A stretch of DNA of 64,000 bases from Clostridia bacterium. GTDB taxonomy: Bacteria > Bacillota > Clostridia > Christensenellales > CAG-314. Positions 11,800-49,324 of the stretch are shown here, one piece after another (the stretch's first letter is position 1; each line of letters begins with the position of its first letter). Location of the stretch: contig JAVVRZ010000001.1 in assembly GCA_036654455.1 (NCBI GenBank), positions 193,345 to 257,344 on the forward strand. The letters are read 5' to 3'. Under the pieces are notes generated by a model, which did not search any database, was not told where the DNA came from, and saw only the letters and a program-made list of their open reading frames with translations. Made by a program: the position numbers and the translations under genes.

Positions 11800-12369
11800 T
11801 TAAAAATATGTAAACGGTCTAATTAGTATAAAAACTATGATAGTTTGAGCAATCGAGATAATTAAACACAAAAGAACAAGCAGAACAAACTTATAGCAAA
11901 GGGCGCTTATATTTGCACAACTTAACCTACAATCATAGACGTGATTTACCGAATATAATACAATGGCTAAAATTACAACCGCTTGAATTATAAACAAAAA
12001 GACTATATACGGCAAAGCCATTAAACCTATGCTAGCTATACAAGACTTAATTGCAAATGCAGTTGTAAAAGCTTTTAACCAAGCTACGACGCAGCCAAAT
12101 CTTAGTAGCGGTCGATATAGAGCTAAAACAAAGAAAACGATTATAATTGCAAGGTATAACCATAAATTTTTAAATAAAACAGGAAAGAAACCTCCTTGTA
12201 TATAGACCGTAATATTTGTATATGAAATAGAATATAATTCGTATTCGCCATTTGCCTTAATAAATATTAGCCCCAAAACTAAACAAACAAGATAAATAGC
12301 AAGTACGAATATATTATATTTTTTATGCGCAAATAAACTTGCGTAAACATCCTTTAACAAATACCTCAT
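11800..12369 (-). CDS. polytopic membrane protein, possibly SpoIIM-like
   Basis: 189 aa with about 5 TM segments. Size, topology and neighbourhood (deoB, dacF-like, spoIVB) resemble SpoIIM, but no diagnostic motif was recognised. Confidence 0.3.
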   Translation of the reverse strand: MRYLLKDVYASLFAHKKYNIFVLAIYLVCLVLGLIFIKANGEYELYSISYTNITVYIQGGFFPVLFKNLWLYLAIIIVFFVLALYRPLLRFGCVVAWLKAFTTAFAIKSCIASIGLMALPYIVFLFIIQAVVILAIVLYSVNHVYDCRLSCANISALCYKFVLLVLLCLIISIAQTIIVFILIRPFTYF

Positions 12370-16564: not shown

Positions 16565-16595
16565 ACAAACAGTCACCTTCCGTATAATTATTATA

Positions 16596-16624
16596 ATTAT
16601 ACATTAGGCTAAATAAATATTCAA
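16596..16624 (-). promoter_or_regulatory. possible internal sigma-A promoter for nadK-argR-recN
   Basis: Minus strand: TTGAAT (16624-16619), 17-nt spacer, TATAAT (16601-16596). Confidence 0.4.
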
Positions 16625-16626
16625 GT

Positions 16627-18438
16627 CTATTTGTGTAAAAAGTTAATAATAAGTTTTGATAAATATTCTTTGGTAAAATTTGCCTCGACAAGTTGCTGTT
16701 CAACTTCGCCTTGCTCGACAAATTTGTCGCTTTGAGCAAGACAAACGACCGATACATTTTTTGTAGCAAAAAATTGAGTTACGGCAGAACCAAACCCACC
16801 TTGCAATACATTTTCTTCTAGCGTAATAACTAGCGAATTATTTAGAGTTGACAAAAATTTGTTATCTAGCGGTTTAATCACGCAGGCATTAGTAATATTT
16901 ATAGAAATTGCATATTTTTTTAGTTCTTGCGCTGTTTGCAATGCTAAATTTATCATTCGATTGCCTACGCAAAGCAGTTCGACTTTGCTTTCGCCGTTTA
17001 AAATTCTATTCCAAGATAATCTATCAAAATGTTGGTCGAAAGATACGTCAATATCTTTGGAATATCTAATAGCAAGTGGCGAATTGAAATTTGCCGACCA
17101 CAAAAGCATATCTTCAAGTTGAGTTTCGTCGGCTGGGGCAAGAATTGTTAAATTTGGAATAAGCGACAAGTAGGATAAATCAAATAATCCTTGATGCGTT
17201 TTACCGTCTGCCCCGACAAAACCAGCTCGGTCTATACAAAATACAACAGGCAAATTTTGTAAACAAGTATCGTGTATAATTTGGTCAAAACCACGTTGCA
17301 AAAAAGTAGAATAAACGCAAAAATATGGTTTAACGCCACAACTAGCTAGGCTAGACGCAAAGGTTACGGCGTGCTGTTCGGCTATACCACAGTCAAAAAA
17401 TTTATCGGGGTAATTGCTTGCGAACGCATCTAAGCCCGTTCCGGACGTCATTGCAGCGGTTATAGCTACAATATTGCTACCTTCTTTGGCAAGTTTAGTA
17501 AGAGTTGCGCCTACAACATTTGACATTGATATTTTTGTGACGTTTGATTGTTTAGAAACGCCGTGAAAAAGTTCGGGATTTAGCTCGGCTGGGGCATAAC
17601 CTTTACCCTTAGTTGTTTTAATATGCAAAATAGTAGGTTGCTCTACGTTCTTTTTAATTTTTTGAAGTAGGCTTATCAATTTTGCAACGTTGTGACCATC
17701 GACTGAACCAATATATTTGATGTCAAAGCTATTAAAATAAAGATTGTTTTTAATAAAGCCGTATTTTATTACACGCTTACAAAAACTACAAATTTTGTAG
17801 GTAAGCTTACCTAAAAGAGGAATTTTTAATATAAACTTTTTGAAACTTTCTTTTCTCTTGTCGTATTTGCCAACTCTTAGGTTTGCAAGCCCCGAAGCGG
17901 TGTTGCCTACAACTTTATTTATTGCTAAGCCATTGTCATTTACAATAATTAGCATTTTACTTAAAGCTATATTATTAAGCGCTTCAAAAGACATTCCGCC
18001 CCCTAACGCCCCGTCGCCGATTATTGCGATTACGTTATAATCAAGTTTATTAACATCTCTTGCCGTTGCAAGACCTAACGCAACCGATATCGAGGTGCTT
18101 GCGTGTCCGGTATTAAAAGTATCAAACTGACTTTGAGCCGTGTCGGGAAACCCACTTAGCCCGCCTTTTTGCCTAAGAGTATTAAATTCTTCTCGTCTGC
18201 CTGACAAAATTTTGTAAACGTAGCTTTGGTGTCCTACGTCCCAAACAAATTTATCGTTTTGGTCAAATACATAAGCAAGGGCTACGGTAAGCTCGACTAC
18301 TCCTAAGTTACTTGAAAGATGTCCTCCGTTTTCTAGCACAATCGGCACTAAAAAATCCCGTATTTCTTGACATAATACGGGTAAATCTTTAATAGAAATT
18401 TTTTTGACATCGTCAAAACTAAAAATATTTTCTAACAT
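16627..18438 (-). CDS. dxs: 1-deoxy-D-xylulose-5-phosphate synthase
   Basis: 603 aa. Contains GGHLSSNLGVVELT and the GDGALGGGMSFEALN thiamine-diphosphate motif. Its ATG overlaps the stop of the upstream membrane protein (TAATG). Confidence 0.95.
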   Translation of the reverse strand: MLENIFSFDDVKKISIKDLPVLCQEIRDFLVPIVLENGGHLSSNLGVVELTVALAYVFDQNDKFVWDVGHQSYVYKILSGRREEFNTLRQKGGLSGFPDTAQSQFDTFNTGHASTSISVALGLATARDVNKLDYNVIAIIGDGALGGGMSFEALNNIALSKMLIIVNDNGLAINKVVGNTASGLANLRVGKYDKRKESFKKFILKIPLLGKLTYKICSFCKRVIKYGFIKNNLYFNSFDIKYIGSVDGHNVAKLISLLQKIKKNVEQPTILHIKTTKGKGYAPAELNPELFHGVSKQSNVTKISMSNVVGATLTKLAKEGSNIVAITAAMTSGTGLDAFASNYPDKFFDCGIAEQHAVTFASSLASCGVKPYFCVYSTFLQRGFDQIIHDTCLQNLPVVFCIDRAGFVGADGKTHQGLFDLSYLSLIPNLTILAPADETQLEDMLLWSANFNSPLAIRYSKDIDVSFDQHFDRLSWNRILNGESKVELLCVGNRMINLALQTAQELKKYAISINITNACVIKPLDNKFLSTLNNSLVITLEENVLQGGFGSAVTQFFATKNVSVVCLAQSDKFVEQGEVEQQLVEANFTKEYLSKLIINFLHK

Positions 18439-19139
18439 TATTTATCAAAAACTGACAGTAGTTTTGCAAGGCTAAATATAATGTTATTTGCCTTAGAAAC
18501 GGCTATTTTTTTGCAAATTGCTTTGCCGGTAATTGTAACCGCTGCGATTACCGCTGAAACTAGGGCACTAGTTACGATTATTGGAATAGGGTCGGTTAAG
18601 CCTAGTTGTATTTGTATTACTACGGCAATAGTAGCTCCCGAAGCGCCGGAAATAATGCTACATACGTCGCCTATAATATCGCCAAAAATTGACGATACCT
18701 TATCGGCATTTTTACATAGCCAAACGGCTCTCTTTGCGCCCTTAACCTTGCGTGAAGCCATTGATAAATACGGCTCAACATCGCAAGAGGTTGCCGCTAC
18801 GCTTACCATATCGGCTGTAATTGCAATTATTACAATAAGAAGTACAAGAATAACGGCAATTATCATTTTAACGAAGTCAACTTGAATTGCGTTATATACT
18901 ATTTCTGTAATAATACTAAAAAATAAAGATAAGAATACAGCAATTACTAAGACTTTAATTAACCACTTAATAACGCCTTTTTTTATCTTATCTTTGGGCT
19001 TAATATTATTACTATCTTCTTCTACTTTTGAAGAAGATAGCTCTTTTTTTGAAACAACAAAATTTCTTTTGTCTTTTGATTTTTCAGCAAAGACTTCTAC
19101 GACATCGCTGTCGTTTTTGGAGTCTTTTTTTGTTGACAT
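18438..19139 (-). CDS. oapA: OapA-like four-TM membrane protein (OLE-associated protein A candidate)
   Basis: 233 aa. A Lys/Ser/Glu/Asp-rich N-terminal region of about 65 aa is followed by four predicted TM helices. It lies directly downstream of the large structured RNA and upstream of dxs, the position described for oapA. SD GGAGA precedes the ATG at 19139. Confidence 0.6.
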   Translation of the reverse strand: MSTKKDSKNDSDVVEVFAEKSKDKRNFVVSKKELSSSKVEEDSNNIKPKDKIKKGVIKWLIKVLVIAVFLSLFFSIITEIVYNAIQVDFVKMIIAVILVLLIVIIAITADMVSVAATSCDVEPYLSMASRKVKGAKRAVWLCKNADKVSSIFGDIIGDVCSIISGASGATIAVVIQIQLGLTDPIPIIVTSALVSAVIAAVTITGKAICKKIAVSKANNIIFSLAKLLSVFDK

Positions 19140-19159
19140 ATTTTTCTCCGTTATTATAA

Positions 19160-19746
19160 AAATAAGGTGGTGATAACACAGATAAACCTTACGGCATAGG
19201 TTCAGTAGGATTTCCCCATCGTTCGCTCATCGTCGCCGAATAAGCAGTTTCCTTTTAAGAACGACAACGTAATGTTGCCAATCACGCAACTGAATCGCCA
19301 CTTAGTCCGTACTATAATCTCCGCATTACCTTCTGTAAAGCAGTCTAGAAGATTTCCTTGGCAAAAAACAAATACATTTATCTTCTTTTGCAGAGTTGAT
19401 TTCATAGAGCAGTCATATTTTACAGTTGGCCAACCTTAGATATGTTCACTAATCCCACAAACCCCGCTCAAAGCAGGCTACTCTGTACACAGCTTAACGG
19501 CCGCATAGCAGGTTCATACTCGAAGAGTAAGGTACTTTATTCGCTTACCCTTTCGGGTCTCCACGACTACTGGGAATATAACTCAGCCGTATGCCATTAC
19601 GACATACCCAATAGTCTTAACTTCCAGCACCAACCCATGTTTGGGCAACATACGCCAGCACCAGAAACTTCATAGTTGTGCCCTTTGACGATCTTTTAGC
19701 CCCGTCTTGAATGTATCGTATTTTGACTAGAATACTGCACCACCTG
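19160..19746 (-). ncRNA. ole: large structured ncRNA, OLE (ornate, large, extremophilic) RNA candidate
   Basis: A 680-nt non-coding gap in an otherwise tightly packed operon, with its own near-consensus promoter. 5' GGUGGUG (19744-19738) pairs with 3' CACCACC (19172-19166) and encloses about 570 nt. Many internal hairpins, including ACCC-GAAA-GGGU (19547-19558), GUUGC-N7-GCAAC (19274-19290) and AACCU-N7-AGGUU (19185-19202). The context ispA-RNA-membrane protein-dxs-nadK-argR-recN matches the published OLE locus. Ends are approximate. Confidence 0.7.
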
Positions 19747-19752
19747 TTTAGT

Positions 19753-19781
19753 ATTATAGCATAATAGTATGCAAAATGCAA
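19753..19781 (-). promoter_or_regulatory. strong sigma-A promoter driving the OLE-like RNA
   Basis: Minus strand: TTGCAT (19781-19776), 17-nt spacer, TATAAT (19758-19753) with an upstream TATGc extended -10/-16 element. Confidence 0.65.
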
Positions 19782-19818
19782 ATATGTTAATACATATTAG
19801 GCTTTTTTTAATTAAATT

Positions 19819-20577
19819 TCATTTAATTTTCAACTGATTTAGGTTGTCAAATAGGTATCCGCTATAAATATTTAAATTTTTGAGCGCAAAATAAGCGTTT
19901 GTAAGATATTTTTCAAGTAGTTGAGCGTCCTCGCCGTTTTTAACTTCATTGTCGGCAAGGTCGTCTGCGAGTTGAAAAGCTAGCCCGTAAAAGTTAGCGT
20001 AATCAATAAAATATTGTTGAATTTGTTGACTAGCGCAAGCATATTTTGCTATGCTTAGGACGCTAGCGACAAACATCTTAGAAGTTTTTAACAAAGAAAT
20101 TTGATAATTTGGACAAGCAGACTGCAAATCAAAACTTTGACCTAGTATCATACCGTTTACGCCCGAACATTCGAAGATTGAATTTATAGCTTCGGCATAA
20201 CCAAAAGATAAGTCGTTATTTTGTAGCAATATTGATATCGCTGTATTTAGTAGTCCGTCGCCTGCAAGTAACGCCGTCGCTACGTCAAACTCCTTGTGAC
20301 AGCTAGGTTTGCCTCGACGAAAATCGTCGTCGTCCATACAAGGCAAATCGTCGTGAATAAGCGAATACGTATGTATCATTTCAATAGCCGATGCAATCGC
20401 TCTAACTTGGTTGTTGTCTAGTAGAAAATAATCAGCAACGGCAAGACAAGTGAAAAATCGTTTGCGTTTACCGCCCGAAAGCAAACTATACTCCATAGCT
20501 TTATATAGTCTGTCGTCCCCTTTTGGCAAAAAACTTAGCAGTACAGAATTTGCGTCTACGCTATTCGTCAAGTCCAT
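19819..20577 (-). CDS. ispA: farnesyl diphosphate synthase / polyprenyl synthetase
   Basis: 252 aa. First DDxxD motif LIHDDLPCMDDDDFRRGK and second motif FQLADDLAD. Somewhat short at the N-terminus and overlaps xseB by 17 nt. Confidence 0.85.
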   Translation of the reverse strand: MDLTNSVDANSVLLSFLPKGDDRLYKAMEYSLLSGGKRKRFFTCLAVADYFLLDNNQVRAIASAIEMIHTYSLIHDDLPCMDDDDFRRGKPSCHKEFDVATALLAGDGLLNTAISILLQNNDLSFGYAEAINSIFECSGVNGMILGQSFDLQSACPNYQISLLKTSKMFVASVLSIAKYACASQQIQQYFIDYANFYGLAFQLADDLADNEVKNGEDAQLLEKYLTNAYFALKNLNIYSGYLFDNLNQLKIK

Positions 20578-46830: not shown

Positions 46831-47724
46831 TTATTCTGCCTTTGGCTCTTCGACAACAACTTCGACTGCTTTTGCTCTTGCTTTTTTAACGGGTTTTTCT
46901 TCTACAACTTCTTCTGCCGTTTGGGCTACAACAACTGTTTCGGTAACAATTTGTTCAATCTCTTGATCTTTGATAATAGGCGTTTCAACTATTTTTGCTT
47001 TAACTTCTTCTCTTGCAACTTCGTCTTCTACTTGATATATTACGCCTTCTTTGGCTTCGATTACAGCGTTTGCAATTACAGCGGCTACAATCTTAATTGC
47101 GCCTATTGCGTCGTCGTTACCGGGTATTACGCAGTCAACTTCGTCGGGGTCGCAGTTAGTATCTACTATTGCTACGATAGGAATATTAAGGGTATGAGCT
47201 TCGGCGATTGCAATAGCTTCTTTTTTGCAGTCTACTACAAATAAGCAACCGGGCATACCGGGCATATCTTTGATGCCGCCGATATTTGCTTGTAATTTAT
47301 CTCTTTCGCTTCTAAGTTTAGCAACTTCTTTTTTGGGAAGAAGGTCAAATTCGCCCATAAGTTCTCTTTGATTGATACTGTTAAGTTTGTCAATACGAGT
47401 GCGAATTGTCTTAAAATTGGTAAGCGTACCGCCTAACCAACGATTATTGATGTAGAACATACCGCAACGCTCTGCCTCAGCTTGAATAGCTGTTTGAGCT
47501 TGTTTTTTTGTGCCTACAAATAGAATTGACTTACCCTCTTTGGCTATGTCACGAACAAAGTTATAAGCTTGCTCGGCAAGTAGTACGGTCTGTTGAAGGT
47601 CAATAATATGAATATCATTTCTCTCCGAATAGATGTACTTCTTCATTTTAGGGTTCCATCTTCTTGTTTGGTGTCCAAAGTGGACGCCTGCTTCTAATAG
47701 TTGTTTCATTGAAACTACTGCCAT
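46831..47724 (-). CDS. rpsB: 30S ribosomal protein S2
   Basis: 297 aa. Contains [19 protein letters not shown]. It carries an acidic Glu/Val-rich C-terminal extension of about 55 aa. Confidence 0.95.
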
Positions 47725-47839
47725 TTTGTGTTACACTCCTTTACTTTTATTGTTTTACCTCCTTGCATCATTTACTACGGCAAACCTTTTTACAAGGCAC
47801 AAAAGCCGAATTGATACAAGTGCGTACTAAACCTTGTAA

Positions 47840-47868
47840 ATTATAACATAGCTTGTTACTTTTAGCAA
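47840..47868 (-). promoter_or_regulatory. sigma-A promoter of rpsB-tsf
   Basis: Minus strand: TTGCTA (47868-47863), 17-nt spacer, TATAAT (47845-47840) preceded by TATGt. It predicts a leader of about 109 nt. Confidence 0.55.
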
Positions 47869-47954
47869 TTATTTTTGAACTCATTTTAGGCGTTATTAGT
47901 AAGAATAACTTGTAAATATAAGTAAAATGATTGATGTTAATGTAAAATTACTTA

Positions 47955-48004
47955 ACAAAAGCGATATACAAATTATAACCTACTTATGTTTGCATATCGC
48001 TTGT
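47955..48004 (-). terminator. long hairpin terminator after the DUF1292 gene
   Basis: Minus strand: ACAAGCGAUAUGCAAA / UUUGUAUAUCGCUU stem (one G-U pair) with a 16-nt loop, followed by UUGUUAAGUAAUUUU. Confidence 0.5.
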
Positions 48005-48045
48005 TATTAGATAAATTAAATTGATAACTTAATAGTTAAGAAATA

Positions 48046-48480
48046 TTATTTCTTATTGCAATCGCACTTTTCGGCTGAGTGTTTGTGTTCGTCACAACCG
48101 CAATCGCACTCGTCGTCACAATCGCATTCGTCGTCGCAATCGCATTCGTCGCCACAACCGCAACCACAACCACATTCTTCGCCTTCAAATTCCTCAGCCA
48201 TCTTGTCATATAGTTCAAACAAAGTGTCTTGTAACGCTTCGTCTTCTACCGGTAAGAGGTTGAATATCTCTGGGTCATTCTCGTCTTCGCTTATTTCAAA
48301 TACAATAACGCAATCGTCGTCAAGATCGTCGGTTTCTTCCATTGGTTGTAAGAAAGCGTAGCTCTTACCTTCGTGCTCGATTGTAGCGGAGTGATAACAC
48401 TCTAATTCCTTGCCGTCCTCGTCTGTTAGAGTTATAACTCTGTCTTCGTCAACTGGTATTTGCTCGGTCTTATCCTTCAT
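48046..48480 (-). CDS. DUF1292 (YrzB-like) protein with a Cys/Asp/Glu-rich C-terminal tail
   Basis: 144 aa. The N-terminal ~100 aa fit the DUF1292 pattern (ITLTDEDGKE...YAFLQP...VIVFEI). It lies downstream of ruvX as in Bacillus yrrK-yrzB. The C-terminal 43 aa, EECGCGCGCGDECDCDDECDCDDECDCGCDEHKHSAEKCDCNKK, contain 13 Cys. Confidence 0.7.
   Translation of the reverse strand: MKDKTEQIPVDEDRVITLTDEDGKELECYHSATIEHEGKSYAFLQPMEETDDLDDDCVIVFEISEDENDPEIFNLLPVEDEALQDTLFELYDKMAEEFEGEECGCGCGCGDECDCDDECDCDDECDCGCDEHKHSAEKCDCNKK
48101..48172 (-). repeat. in-frame 18-nt tandem repeat (about 4 units) encoding the Cys-rich tail
   Basis: Plus-strand units: caatcgcactcgtcgtca / caatcgcattcgtcgtcg / caatcgcattcgtcgcca / caaccgcaaccacaacca. 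Confidence 0.8.
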
Positions 48481-48915: not shown

Positions 48916-49009
48916 TTCTTTATATTAACATATTCGCAAAAAAATTGATAGTCTTTTATTAAAGTTATTTTAATTGAAATTACCTATGATATACTATTAC
49001 AGAAATAGT

Positions 49010-49038
49010 ATTATATATTTTGTTTAGATATGTGTAAA
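49010..49038 (-). promoter_or_regulatory. sigma-A promoter upstream of ruvX
   Basis: Minus strand: TTTACA (49038-49033), 17-nt spacer, TATAAT (49015-49010). An inverted repeat ATACTATT-N5-AATAGTAT (48991-49011) overlaps the -10 and start site. Confidence 0.45.
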
Positions 49039-49067
49039 ATAAAGAAAACAGGGTAGCTTTCGCTACC
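49035..49067 (-). terminator. rho-independent terminator after the 44-aa ORF
   Basis: Minus strand: GGUAGC-GAAA-GCUACC followed by CUGUUUUCUUUAUUUU. Confidence 0.7.
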
Positions 49068-49070
49068 TTG

Positions 49071-49205
49071 TTAGTCGTTATTCATTAGTTTGAGTAACTT
49101 TTTCTTACCAGTTACAAACATTTGCTTAACTTGCGGAATTTGCGCAAGCGCAAGACCCGCTGTTATTCCTACGGTTAGACCTATAATTAAACCTTTAATT
49201 TGCAT
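49071..49205 (-). CDS. small membrane/amphipathic protein, 44 aa (below the ORF-track cut-off)
   Basis: Manual translation: MQIKGLIIGLTVGITAGLALAQIPQVKQMFVTGKKKLLKLMNND. A strong SD AAGGGGGTG lies 6 nt before the ATG, and a dedicated terminator lies directly downstream. Confidence 0.45.
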   Translation of the reverse strand: MQIKGLIIGLTVGITAGLALAQIPQVKQMFVTGKKKLLKLMNND

Positions 49206-49324
49206 TAAATTCACCCCCTTTGCCTTAGTGTGAGTAAAAGCAATGGGTAAAATGCGTGAAATATAGATAAAATTAGTAGGTAAAATTATTAAATTTATTT
49301 TTACTCGGTTAAACTAACAATAGT

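Follow-up and report, generated by a model that had tools for sequence, protein, structure and literature searches.

OLE stands for ornate, large, extremophilic RNA. The family was described in 2006, and 2,822 genomes of Bacillota carry members (PMC11332333). In Halalkalibacterium halodurans, OLE has its own promoter and is an abundant, discrete RNA with a half-life of about 3 h and phenotypes in alcohol and cold (PMC3413148). Two OLE RNAs form a dimer with a kissing loop (PMC12286853), and the membrane partner OapA is related to the transporter MpfA (PMC11332333). Here we analyse a stretch of 64,000 nucleotides (nt) from an uncultured Clostridia bacterium (GCA_036654455.1, contig JAVVRZ010000001.1, positions 193,345 to 257,344), referred to below as the window, in which a long gap separates ispA from the next protein gene. 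With a probability of about 0.96, the gap holds an ole gene that encodes a full-length OLE RNA of ~580 nt, and the gene that follows is that of its membrane partner, oapA.

The gap had attracted attention in the initial annotation for its size and its raised G+C content, and both are borne out: it measures 679 nt (19140-19818), which makes it the largest in the window, ahead of gaps of 409 and 321 nt, and G+C is 0.38-0.43 across the element vs 0.28-0.32 in the immediate flanks. The RNA (minus) strand is G-rich, with a plus-strand GC skew of about -0.23. When Rfam 15 was scanned over the whole window at gathering thresholds, OLE was the sole match. The covariance model RF01071 aligned with 19759-19151 on the minus strand at 425.9 bits (gathering score 50, E = 1e-121) and did so over model positions 1-616 of 616, so that the match is not truncated. 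This search, which the initial annotation had proposed as the check on its reading, is decisive and supports its identification of an OLE RNA gene. Near-invariant nucleotides occupy about a quarter of positions in the OLE family, and the window sequence is identical to the consensus at 218 of 249 highly conserved (upper-case) positions, and 138 of the 156 model base pairs, once the Rfam structure is mapped onto it, are standard Watson-Crick or G-U pairs. Seven related OLE loci score 419-492 bits with the same model, so the window copy is a typical one.

The identification thus rests on the end-to-end RF01071 match, on a fold that covaries in 80 relatives, on gene order and on an OapA homologue downstream, each of which is taken up below. 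The likeness to the full-length OLE RNAs of H. halodurans, Clostridium acetobutylicum and C. botulinum is broad: it extends to length, conserved nucleotides, helices, bulged GNRA hairpins, the GGCC loop, the proximal promoter and the position between ispA and oapA-dxs. The host, a Clostridia metagenome-assembled genome (MAG), likewise belongs to the spore-forming Bacillota, and sporulation genes (spoIIIA, spoIVB, ytfJ) lie in the window. Hosts of OLE are Bacillota, typically anaerobes or extremophiles. The differences are small and of lineage level: the hairpin at 19557-19519 falls 5 nt short of the RF01071 model, and a loop that reads CUAAAAAU in full-length OLE reads CUAAAAGA here. GOLLD, ROOL, the raiA motif, group II introns and RNase P RNA are likewise large, highly structured non-coding RNAs, and none of them has a match in the window. 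The window OLE is an ordinary full-length member of an already known family; any Rfam scan would detect it, and what is known of the family is unchanged. The locus does add one full-length OLE/OapA pair from an uncultured Clostridia lineage, which may help comparative models of OLE function in a minor way.

Conserved fold of the RNA

The metagenomic relatives compared here come from a search for a conserved 20-mer, GTGGTGCAGTATTCTAGTCA, which returned at least 120 metagenomic loci; the 20-mer was absent from the viral contigs searched. The window sequence was aligned with 80 distinct full-length metagenomic OLE RNAs using MAFFT. Three properties of this alignment bear on what follows: the relatives share an exact 20-nt 5' motif, so the inner closing helix has no room to vary on its 5' strand; the MAFFT alignment is poor in the most variable hairpins, with helices 14-16 just 44-73% paired; and the 137 invariant columns of the 81-sequence alignment include the window by construction.

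Across the relatives, the Rfam structure together with a closing helix between the two ends of the RNA is paired in 85.3% of cells, vs 69.6% in column shuffles and 40-46% in a control in which the partners were slid by 1-3 columns. The covariation score is 0.475 vs 0.204 in shuffles, a value reached by 0 of 500 shuffles, and 132 pairs are changed on both sides among the relatives. The Rfam structure plus the closing helix is thus strongly supported as the conserved fold of the window OLE.

The closing helix is left out of the Rfam structure line, which keeps the 5' and 3' ends unpaired. The initial annotation had paired GGUGGUG (19744-19738) with CACCACC (19172-19166), and this proposal holds in substance: the strands are complementary and the outer pairs covary. 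The window version has seven pairs (19745-19739 with 19171-19165). G19738 and C19172 could add an eighth, but only at the expense of the conserved Rfam closing helix of the 3' domain, which uses that C. Pairing of the inner positions is 97-100%, a figure to be read with the fixed 5' side in mind, and the 3' strand is conserved. Just outside GUGG/CCAC, the first position is GC in 65 relatives and AU in 12, the next outward is AU in 34, GC in 16, UA in 14 and CG in 3, and the one after is AU in 26, UA in 14 and CG in 11. The helix ranges from 4 to 19 pairs in length among relatives, and both the minimum-free-energy fold and the centroid fold of the window sequence also close the molecule by a 5'/3' helix. 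We take it to be the P1 of the Breaker laboratory models.

The internal helices listed in the initial annotation fared differently in the same covariation test, and its structural proposal is confirmed only in part because that list was wrong. ACCC-GAAA-GGGU, GUUGC-N7-GCAAC, AACCU-N7-AGGUU, GUAAUG/CAUUAC and UCCCA/UGGGA can form in the window sequence and find no comparative support, and the same is true of the suggested pseudoknot CAAAA-GAAGAU/UUUUG/AUCUUC, which does no better than shuffles. Taken together, these six are paired in 62.2% of cells vs 62.7% in shuffles, with a covariation score of 0.094 vs 0.102, and 471-497 of 500 shuffles reach the observed values; we therefore rejected them. 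Several exclude conserved Rfam helices: ACCC-GAAA-GGGU competes with the long hairpin 19557-19519, and the P13 hairpin and domain-closing helix face competition from GUUGC/GCAAC and GUAAUG/CAUUAC.

Within the conserved fold, helices 4-16 make up a central region (Table 1) and show covariation among the relatives. Its multi-stem part is closed by GCUUU/GAAGA (19474-19470 with 19385-19381), and the region corresponds to the part resolved by cryo-electron microscopy (cryo-EM) in other species, for which a domain description is available (PMC12286853, PMC12265935). There, the palindromic loop L9.3 covaries as GGCC, GAUC or AGCU, and in the cryo-EM dimer it joins two OLE RNAs through a symmetric kissing contact (PMC12286853). 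The window has the palindrome GGCC at 19431-19428, which by analogy may serve the same dimer contact.

Toward the 3' end, the P13-type hairpin (helix 22) covaries at 8 of 8 pairs. Binding of the partner protein OapB depends on a GNRA loop plus a single-nucleotide bulge (PMC7936274), and this hairpin, with its GCAA loop and bulged A19282, is a predicted OapB site. The P14.1-type hairpin is a weak secondary OapB site in described OLE RNAs (PMC7936274). A third protein, OapC, binds the OLE kink turn (PMC9723947), and around the kink-turn region the window OLE has the conserved stretches UUAAG and CGUGGAGA. Two variants of OLE belong to the same family and share many of the same conserved nucleotides; in variant 1, P7-P9 are shortened and the OapB site is often absent, and variant 2 is without P7 and P8 (PMC11332333). 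The window RNA keeps the parts that these variants shorten or drop. The helices at 19557-19519, 19511-19483 and 19474-19381 and the P13 hairpin at 19287-19267 are all present, and because P7, P8, P9 and the OapB-site hairpin are thus accounted for, the window OLE is full-length and belongs to neither variant.

OapA and the proposed function

The gene that follows the RNA on the same strand begins 25 nt after the closing helix and encodes a protein with 447 homologues, the nearest at 58% identity, many of which carry PF01595, the CNNM membrane domain. Of the 74 metagenomic loci with enough sequence, 68 have an OapA homologue directly after OLE, in the same orientation. The species genomes of GTDB hold one distant relative only (43%, L001), and there OLE is also present in the same order. 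In a large protein collection, no other protein exceeds 58% identity with the window protein; an identical sequence, annotated as a hypothetical protein, occurs in a Clostridia bacterium MAG (GCA_036652855.1, contig JAVVVA010000001.1), in whose annotation no protein gene is called between ispA and oapA.

An AlphaFold2 model built from 42 sequences (mean predicted local distance difference test score, pLDDT, 82.2; predicted template modelling score 0.70) has helices at residues 54-84, 88-118, 145-179 and 184-215, all with pLDDT above 86 and in agreement with hydropathy windows. Its best match in the PDB is the archaeal CNNM protein MtCorB (7m1t/7m1u; for 7m1t, probability 1.00, E = 0.016), and it also matches the bacterial CorC membrane domain (7cff/7cfg, template modelling score normalised to the target 0.56-0.60), all other matches being poor. 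In this model, the four helices of OapA adopt a CNNM-type membrane fold, and cytosolic domains are lacking. The same description, a CNNM/MpfA-like membrane domain without cytosolic regulatory domains, has been given for OapA elsewhere (PMC11332333, PMC12265935). The membrane-domain fold is like that of the MpfA/CNNM/CorB/CorC Mg2+ transporters, in keeping with the frequent PF01595 assignment of OapA homologues; unlike those transporters, OapA lacks the CBS and CorC domains and is encoded beside OLE, and the window protein itself stays below every Pfam threshold.

Between helices 2 and 3 lies a basic loop, SMASRKVKGAKRAVWLCKNADK (residues 126-147), with the conserved basic stretch SMASRKVKGAKRA. 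Among 42 homologues, M127, K131 and G134 are invariant, and S129, R130, A138 and N144 are at least 90% conserved. Clustered and conserved basic residues are a described feature of this OapA loop (PMC12265935). The N terminus of the window protein is of another character: residues 1-55 form a low-confidence, disordered and highly charged extension that is unconserved among homologues, and the first 57 residues include 15 Lys/Arg and 11 Asp/Glu. In this it differs from C. botulinum OapA, for which an N-terminal signal sequence is mentioned.

By analogy with H. halodurans and Clostridium, the window OLE would be transcribed from a promoter of its own, would be abundant and stable, and would dimerise through contacts such as the GGCC loop. 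OapA dimers would bind the RNA and hold it at the membrane; OapB, at the bulged GNRA hairpin, and OapC, at the kink turn, would join the particle. Such a particle may help the cell to withstand alcohols, cold, excess Mg2+ and growth on poor carbon sources. Our best guess, drawn from the literature, is that OLE acts as a regulatory scaffold on a transporter-like OapA dimer, a substitute for the cytosolic regulatory domains that MpfA and CNNM proteins carry.

Transcript ends and rival explanations

The promoter read from the sequence in the initial annotation, a near-consensus element at 19753-19781, is supported by its conserved position. Of 97 distinct upstream regions from related loci, 61 have a TGnTATAAT-type element no more than 30 nt before GUGGUG (mean 2.1 and maximum 8 in shuffles). 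In the window, TATAAT is at 19758-19753 and its TG at 19761-19760, with a 17-nt spacer from TTGCAT; the promoter scan offered an alternative -35 reading, TTTGCA with an 18-nt spacer from the same TATAAT with TG. Because the extended -10 ends 9 nt before GUGGUG, transcription probably starts at ~19746-19744. The ole gene of H. halodurans similarly has an active proximal promoter with 5' ends nearby (PMC3413148).

At the other end, the Shine-Dalgarno sequence of oapA comes 16 nt after the closing helix, and the U-rich tract in between (Table 1) has counterparts in the family: at least 6 U in 8 nt follow the closing helix in 35 of 81 OLE loci, vs 7 of 81 in a control flank. In some relatives (e.g. 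L012, L016) a classical terminator hairpin stands beyond the U-rich tract. The 3' end of ole probably falls at the U-rich tract behind the closing helix, and read-through or co-transcription would then supply oapA-dxs. A helix followed by a U-tract is a terminator-like arrangement, here with a stem that spans the whole RNA; the loci with the tract include L012, L020-L022, L028, L031, L043, L045, L054, L065, L069, L083, L092, L095 and L114. In the window and about a third of OLE loci, the closing helix and U-rich tract might work as an unusual intrinsic terminator with the whole 560-nt RNA as its 'loop'. If they did, correct folding of OLE would decide read-through into oapA and dxs, and assembly of the RNA would be linked to how much of its partner and of isoprenoid precursors is made. 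We hold this improbable; as a real regulatory device the arrangement is unlikely, and it is a mildly new thread.

Several results weigh against the locus being a functional ole gene with its partner. The terminator scan found no minus-strand hairpin terminator between ole and oapA, so that a discrete 3' end is assumed. The folding energy of the window OLE as a single sequence is insignificant (z = -1.42) and was not used as evidence. Neither oapB (YbzG, KOW motif) nor oapC (YbxF, L7Ae family) was found in the window when 20 small open reading frames (ORFs) were compared with Pfam; both genes are normally encoded elsewhere in the genome, and OLE-positive genomes are expected to carry them and to lack mpfA (PMC11332333). 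OapA itself matched no family in Pfam (down to E <= 5) or NCBIfam and had no real match by sequence among solved structures, and the structural matches of its model carry weak Foldseek E-values, 0.016 at best.

The missing hairpin, the short distance to the Shine-Dalgarno sequence and a U-rich tract that resembles an attenuator would also suit an element that is only the long structured 5' leader of an oapA-dxs mRNA, exerting control in cis and giving rise to no free stable RNA, and part of the OLE of H. halodurans is indeed co-transcribed with its neighbours (PMC3413148, PMC12265935). The matched family, however, is elsewhere a discrete and abundant RNA with a ~3 h half-life that acts with proteins in trans (PMC3413148). 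The classical terminators in L012 and L016 make a separate transcript possible, and neither the size of the RNA nor its conserved protein-binding sites fit a simple leader, so we regard this explanation as very improbable. The sequence could instead be read as a decaying, non-functional remnant of OLE: 18 of the 156 model pairs are non-standard, 31 of the 249 conserved positions are changed, and the score lies at the low end of the range of the seven relatives. Yet the RNA is full length with all helices present, its differences are common to its nearest relatives (the CUAAAAGA loop, for example, recurs in L028, L068, L069 and L083), the promoter is intact, and so is oapA, with its invariant residues, which leaves decay scarcely any credence.

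That the gap might hold genes for small proteins was considered for two ORFs, one of 67 amino acids (aa) in the sense direction (19202-19405, minus) and one of 77 aa antisense (19442-19675, plus). An antisense ORF of at least 50 aa recurs over the equivalent region in 45 of 80 relatives (50-170 aa), and these ORFs average 77 aa vs 63 aa in shuffles, which gives the antisense frame a semblance of conservation. No reading frame is kept, however, since the spacings between conserved blocks fall on all residues modulo 3 (35 lengths divided 12/13/10 and 23 lengths divided 8/9/6), and the excess over shuffles is small; a coding antisense ORF was rejected on these grounds. Substitutions compensate one another across helices, both ORFs lack a Shine-Dalgarno sequence, and the G-rich RNA strand makes stop codons rarer on the antisense strand. 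The chance that either ORF is a protein gene is negligible, and the view of the initial annotation that they are not protein genes stands: they are by-products of a conserved, G-rich RNA sequence. An ORF-based pipeline would leave the 680 nt of the ole gene blank or fill them with false small proteins. The antisense ORFs are likely sources of false 'hypothetical protein' calls in over half of the loci.

Gene neighbourhood

On the minus strand, the genes run spoIIIAA-AH, an Asp23-family gene (yqhY-like), nusB, xseA, xseB and ispA upstream of ole, and oapA (the 233-aa ORF), dxs, nadK, argR, recN and spoIVB downstream of it. The identities of the flanking genes and their order, with tlyA missing, agree with the initial annotation. 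The synteny holds in relatives too, where IspA is encoded upstream of OLE in 77 of 94 loci and Dxs downstream in 38 of 47. In OLE clusters tlyA usually stands between dxs and nadK. The window departs from this pattern, with a dxs-nadK gap of just 50 nt (16577-16626), and so apparently do its nearest relatives L037, L074 and L107, in which the nadK match starts ~3.4 kb after the OLE start vs 3.7-4.7 kb for most of the other loci with dxs as well as nadK.

Table 1. Coordinates of the ole gene, its landmarks and adjoining genes in the window.
Feature	Position	Strand	Basis or remark
ole as matched by RF01071	19151..19759	minus	likely RNA ~19746-19744 to ~19165-19156
-35-like hexamer TTGCAT	19776..19781	minus	consensus match only
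Extended -10 TGcTATAAT	19753..19761	minus	ends 9 nt before GUGGUG
Closing helix P1, 5' strand AGGUGGU	19739..19745	minus	covariation; helix 1 of alignment
Central region, long P3-type helix (19667-19621) through multi-stem region	19381..19667	minus	Rfam structure mapped
Loop UGGCCA with palindrome GGCC (19431-19428), in long hairpin	19427..19432	minus	RF01071 alignment
P13-type hairpin: GCGUG, bulged A (19282), UUG, GNRA loop GCAA (19278-19275), then CAUUACGU	19267..19287	minus	Rfam alignment, mapped structure
Second GNRA hairpin, P14.1-type, loop GCGA (19236-19233)	19225..19245	minus	Rfam alignment; helix 24
Closing helix P1, 3' strand ACCACCU	19165..19171	minus	sequence; alignment
U-rich tract UUAUUUUUAU, directly after P1 3' strand	19156..19165	minus	sequence
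oapA Shine-Dalgarno GGAG	19146..19149	minus	sequence
oapA, 233-aa predicted four-helix membrane protein	18438..19139	minus	stop overlaps dxs start
dxs, directly after oapA	16627..18438	minus	TIGR00204, 623 bits
ispA, farnesyl diphosphate synthase, 252 aa, upstream neighbour	19819..20577	minus	NF045485 E = 8.4e-55, PF00348

IspA is short, at 252 aa vs about 290-300, and its profile alignment reaches residue ~211 only; both DDxxD motifs are kept. The start of ispA overlaps xseB by 17 nt. The window as a whole has 74 non-overlapping ORFs, and the minus strand carries almost all of them; of the sizeable ones, only two small doubtful ORFs lie off that strand, and the plus-strand GC skew is negative almost throughout. 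The shared orientation and the skew place the window in one long, presumably leading-strand, block. Directly after spoIVB, in the slot that spo0A usually occupies in this conserved cluster, is a 189-aa ORF (11800-12369, minus) with no Pfam or NCBIfam match.

Farther from ole, the two next-largest gaps gave no Rfam match at E <= 0.1. One, of 321 nt (47725-48045), lies upstream of rpsB, and the other, of 409 nt (48916-49324), lies between a nifU-like gene and ruvX and holds only a 47-aa hydrophobic ORF (49071-49214, minus). A DUF1292 protein (48046-48480, minus) ends in a repetitive Cys/Asp/Glu-rich C-terminal tail (CGCGCGCGDECDCDDECDCDDECDCGCDEHKH...). Ribosomal protein S2 (46831-47724, minus) carries a C-terminal extension of ~70 aa, rich in Glu, Val and Lys, which lies beyond the S2 Pfam domain (residues 9-223 of 297).

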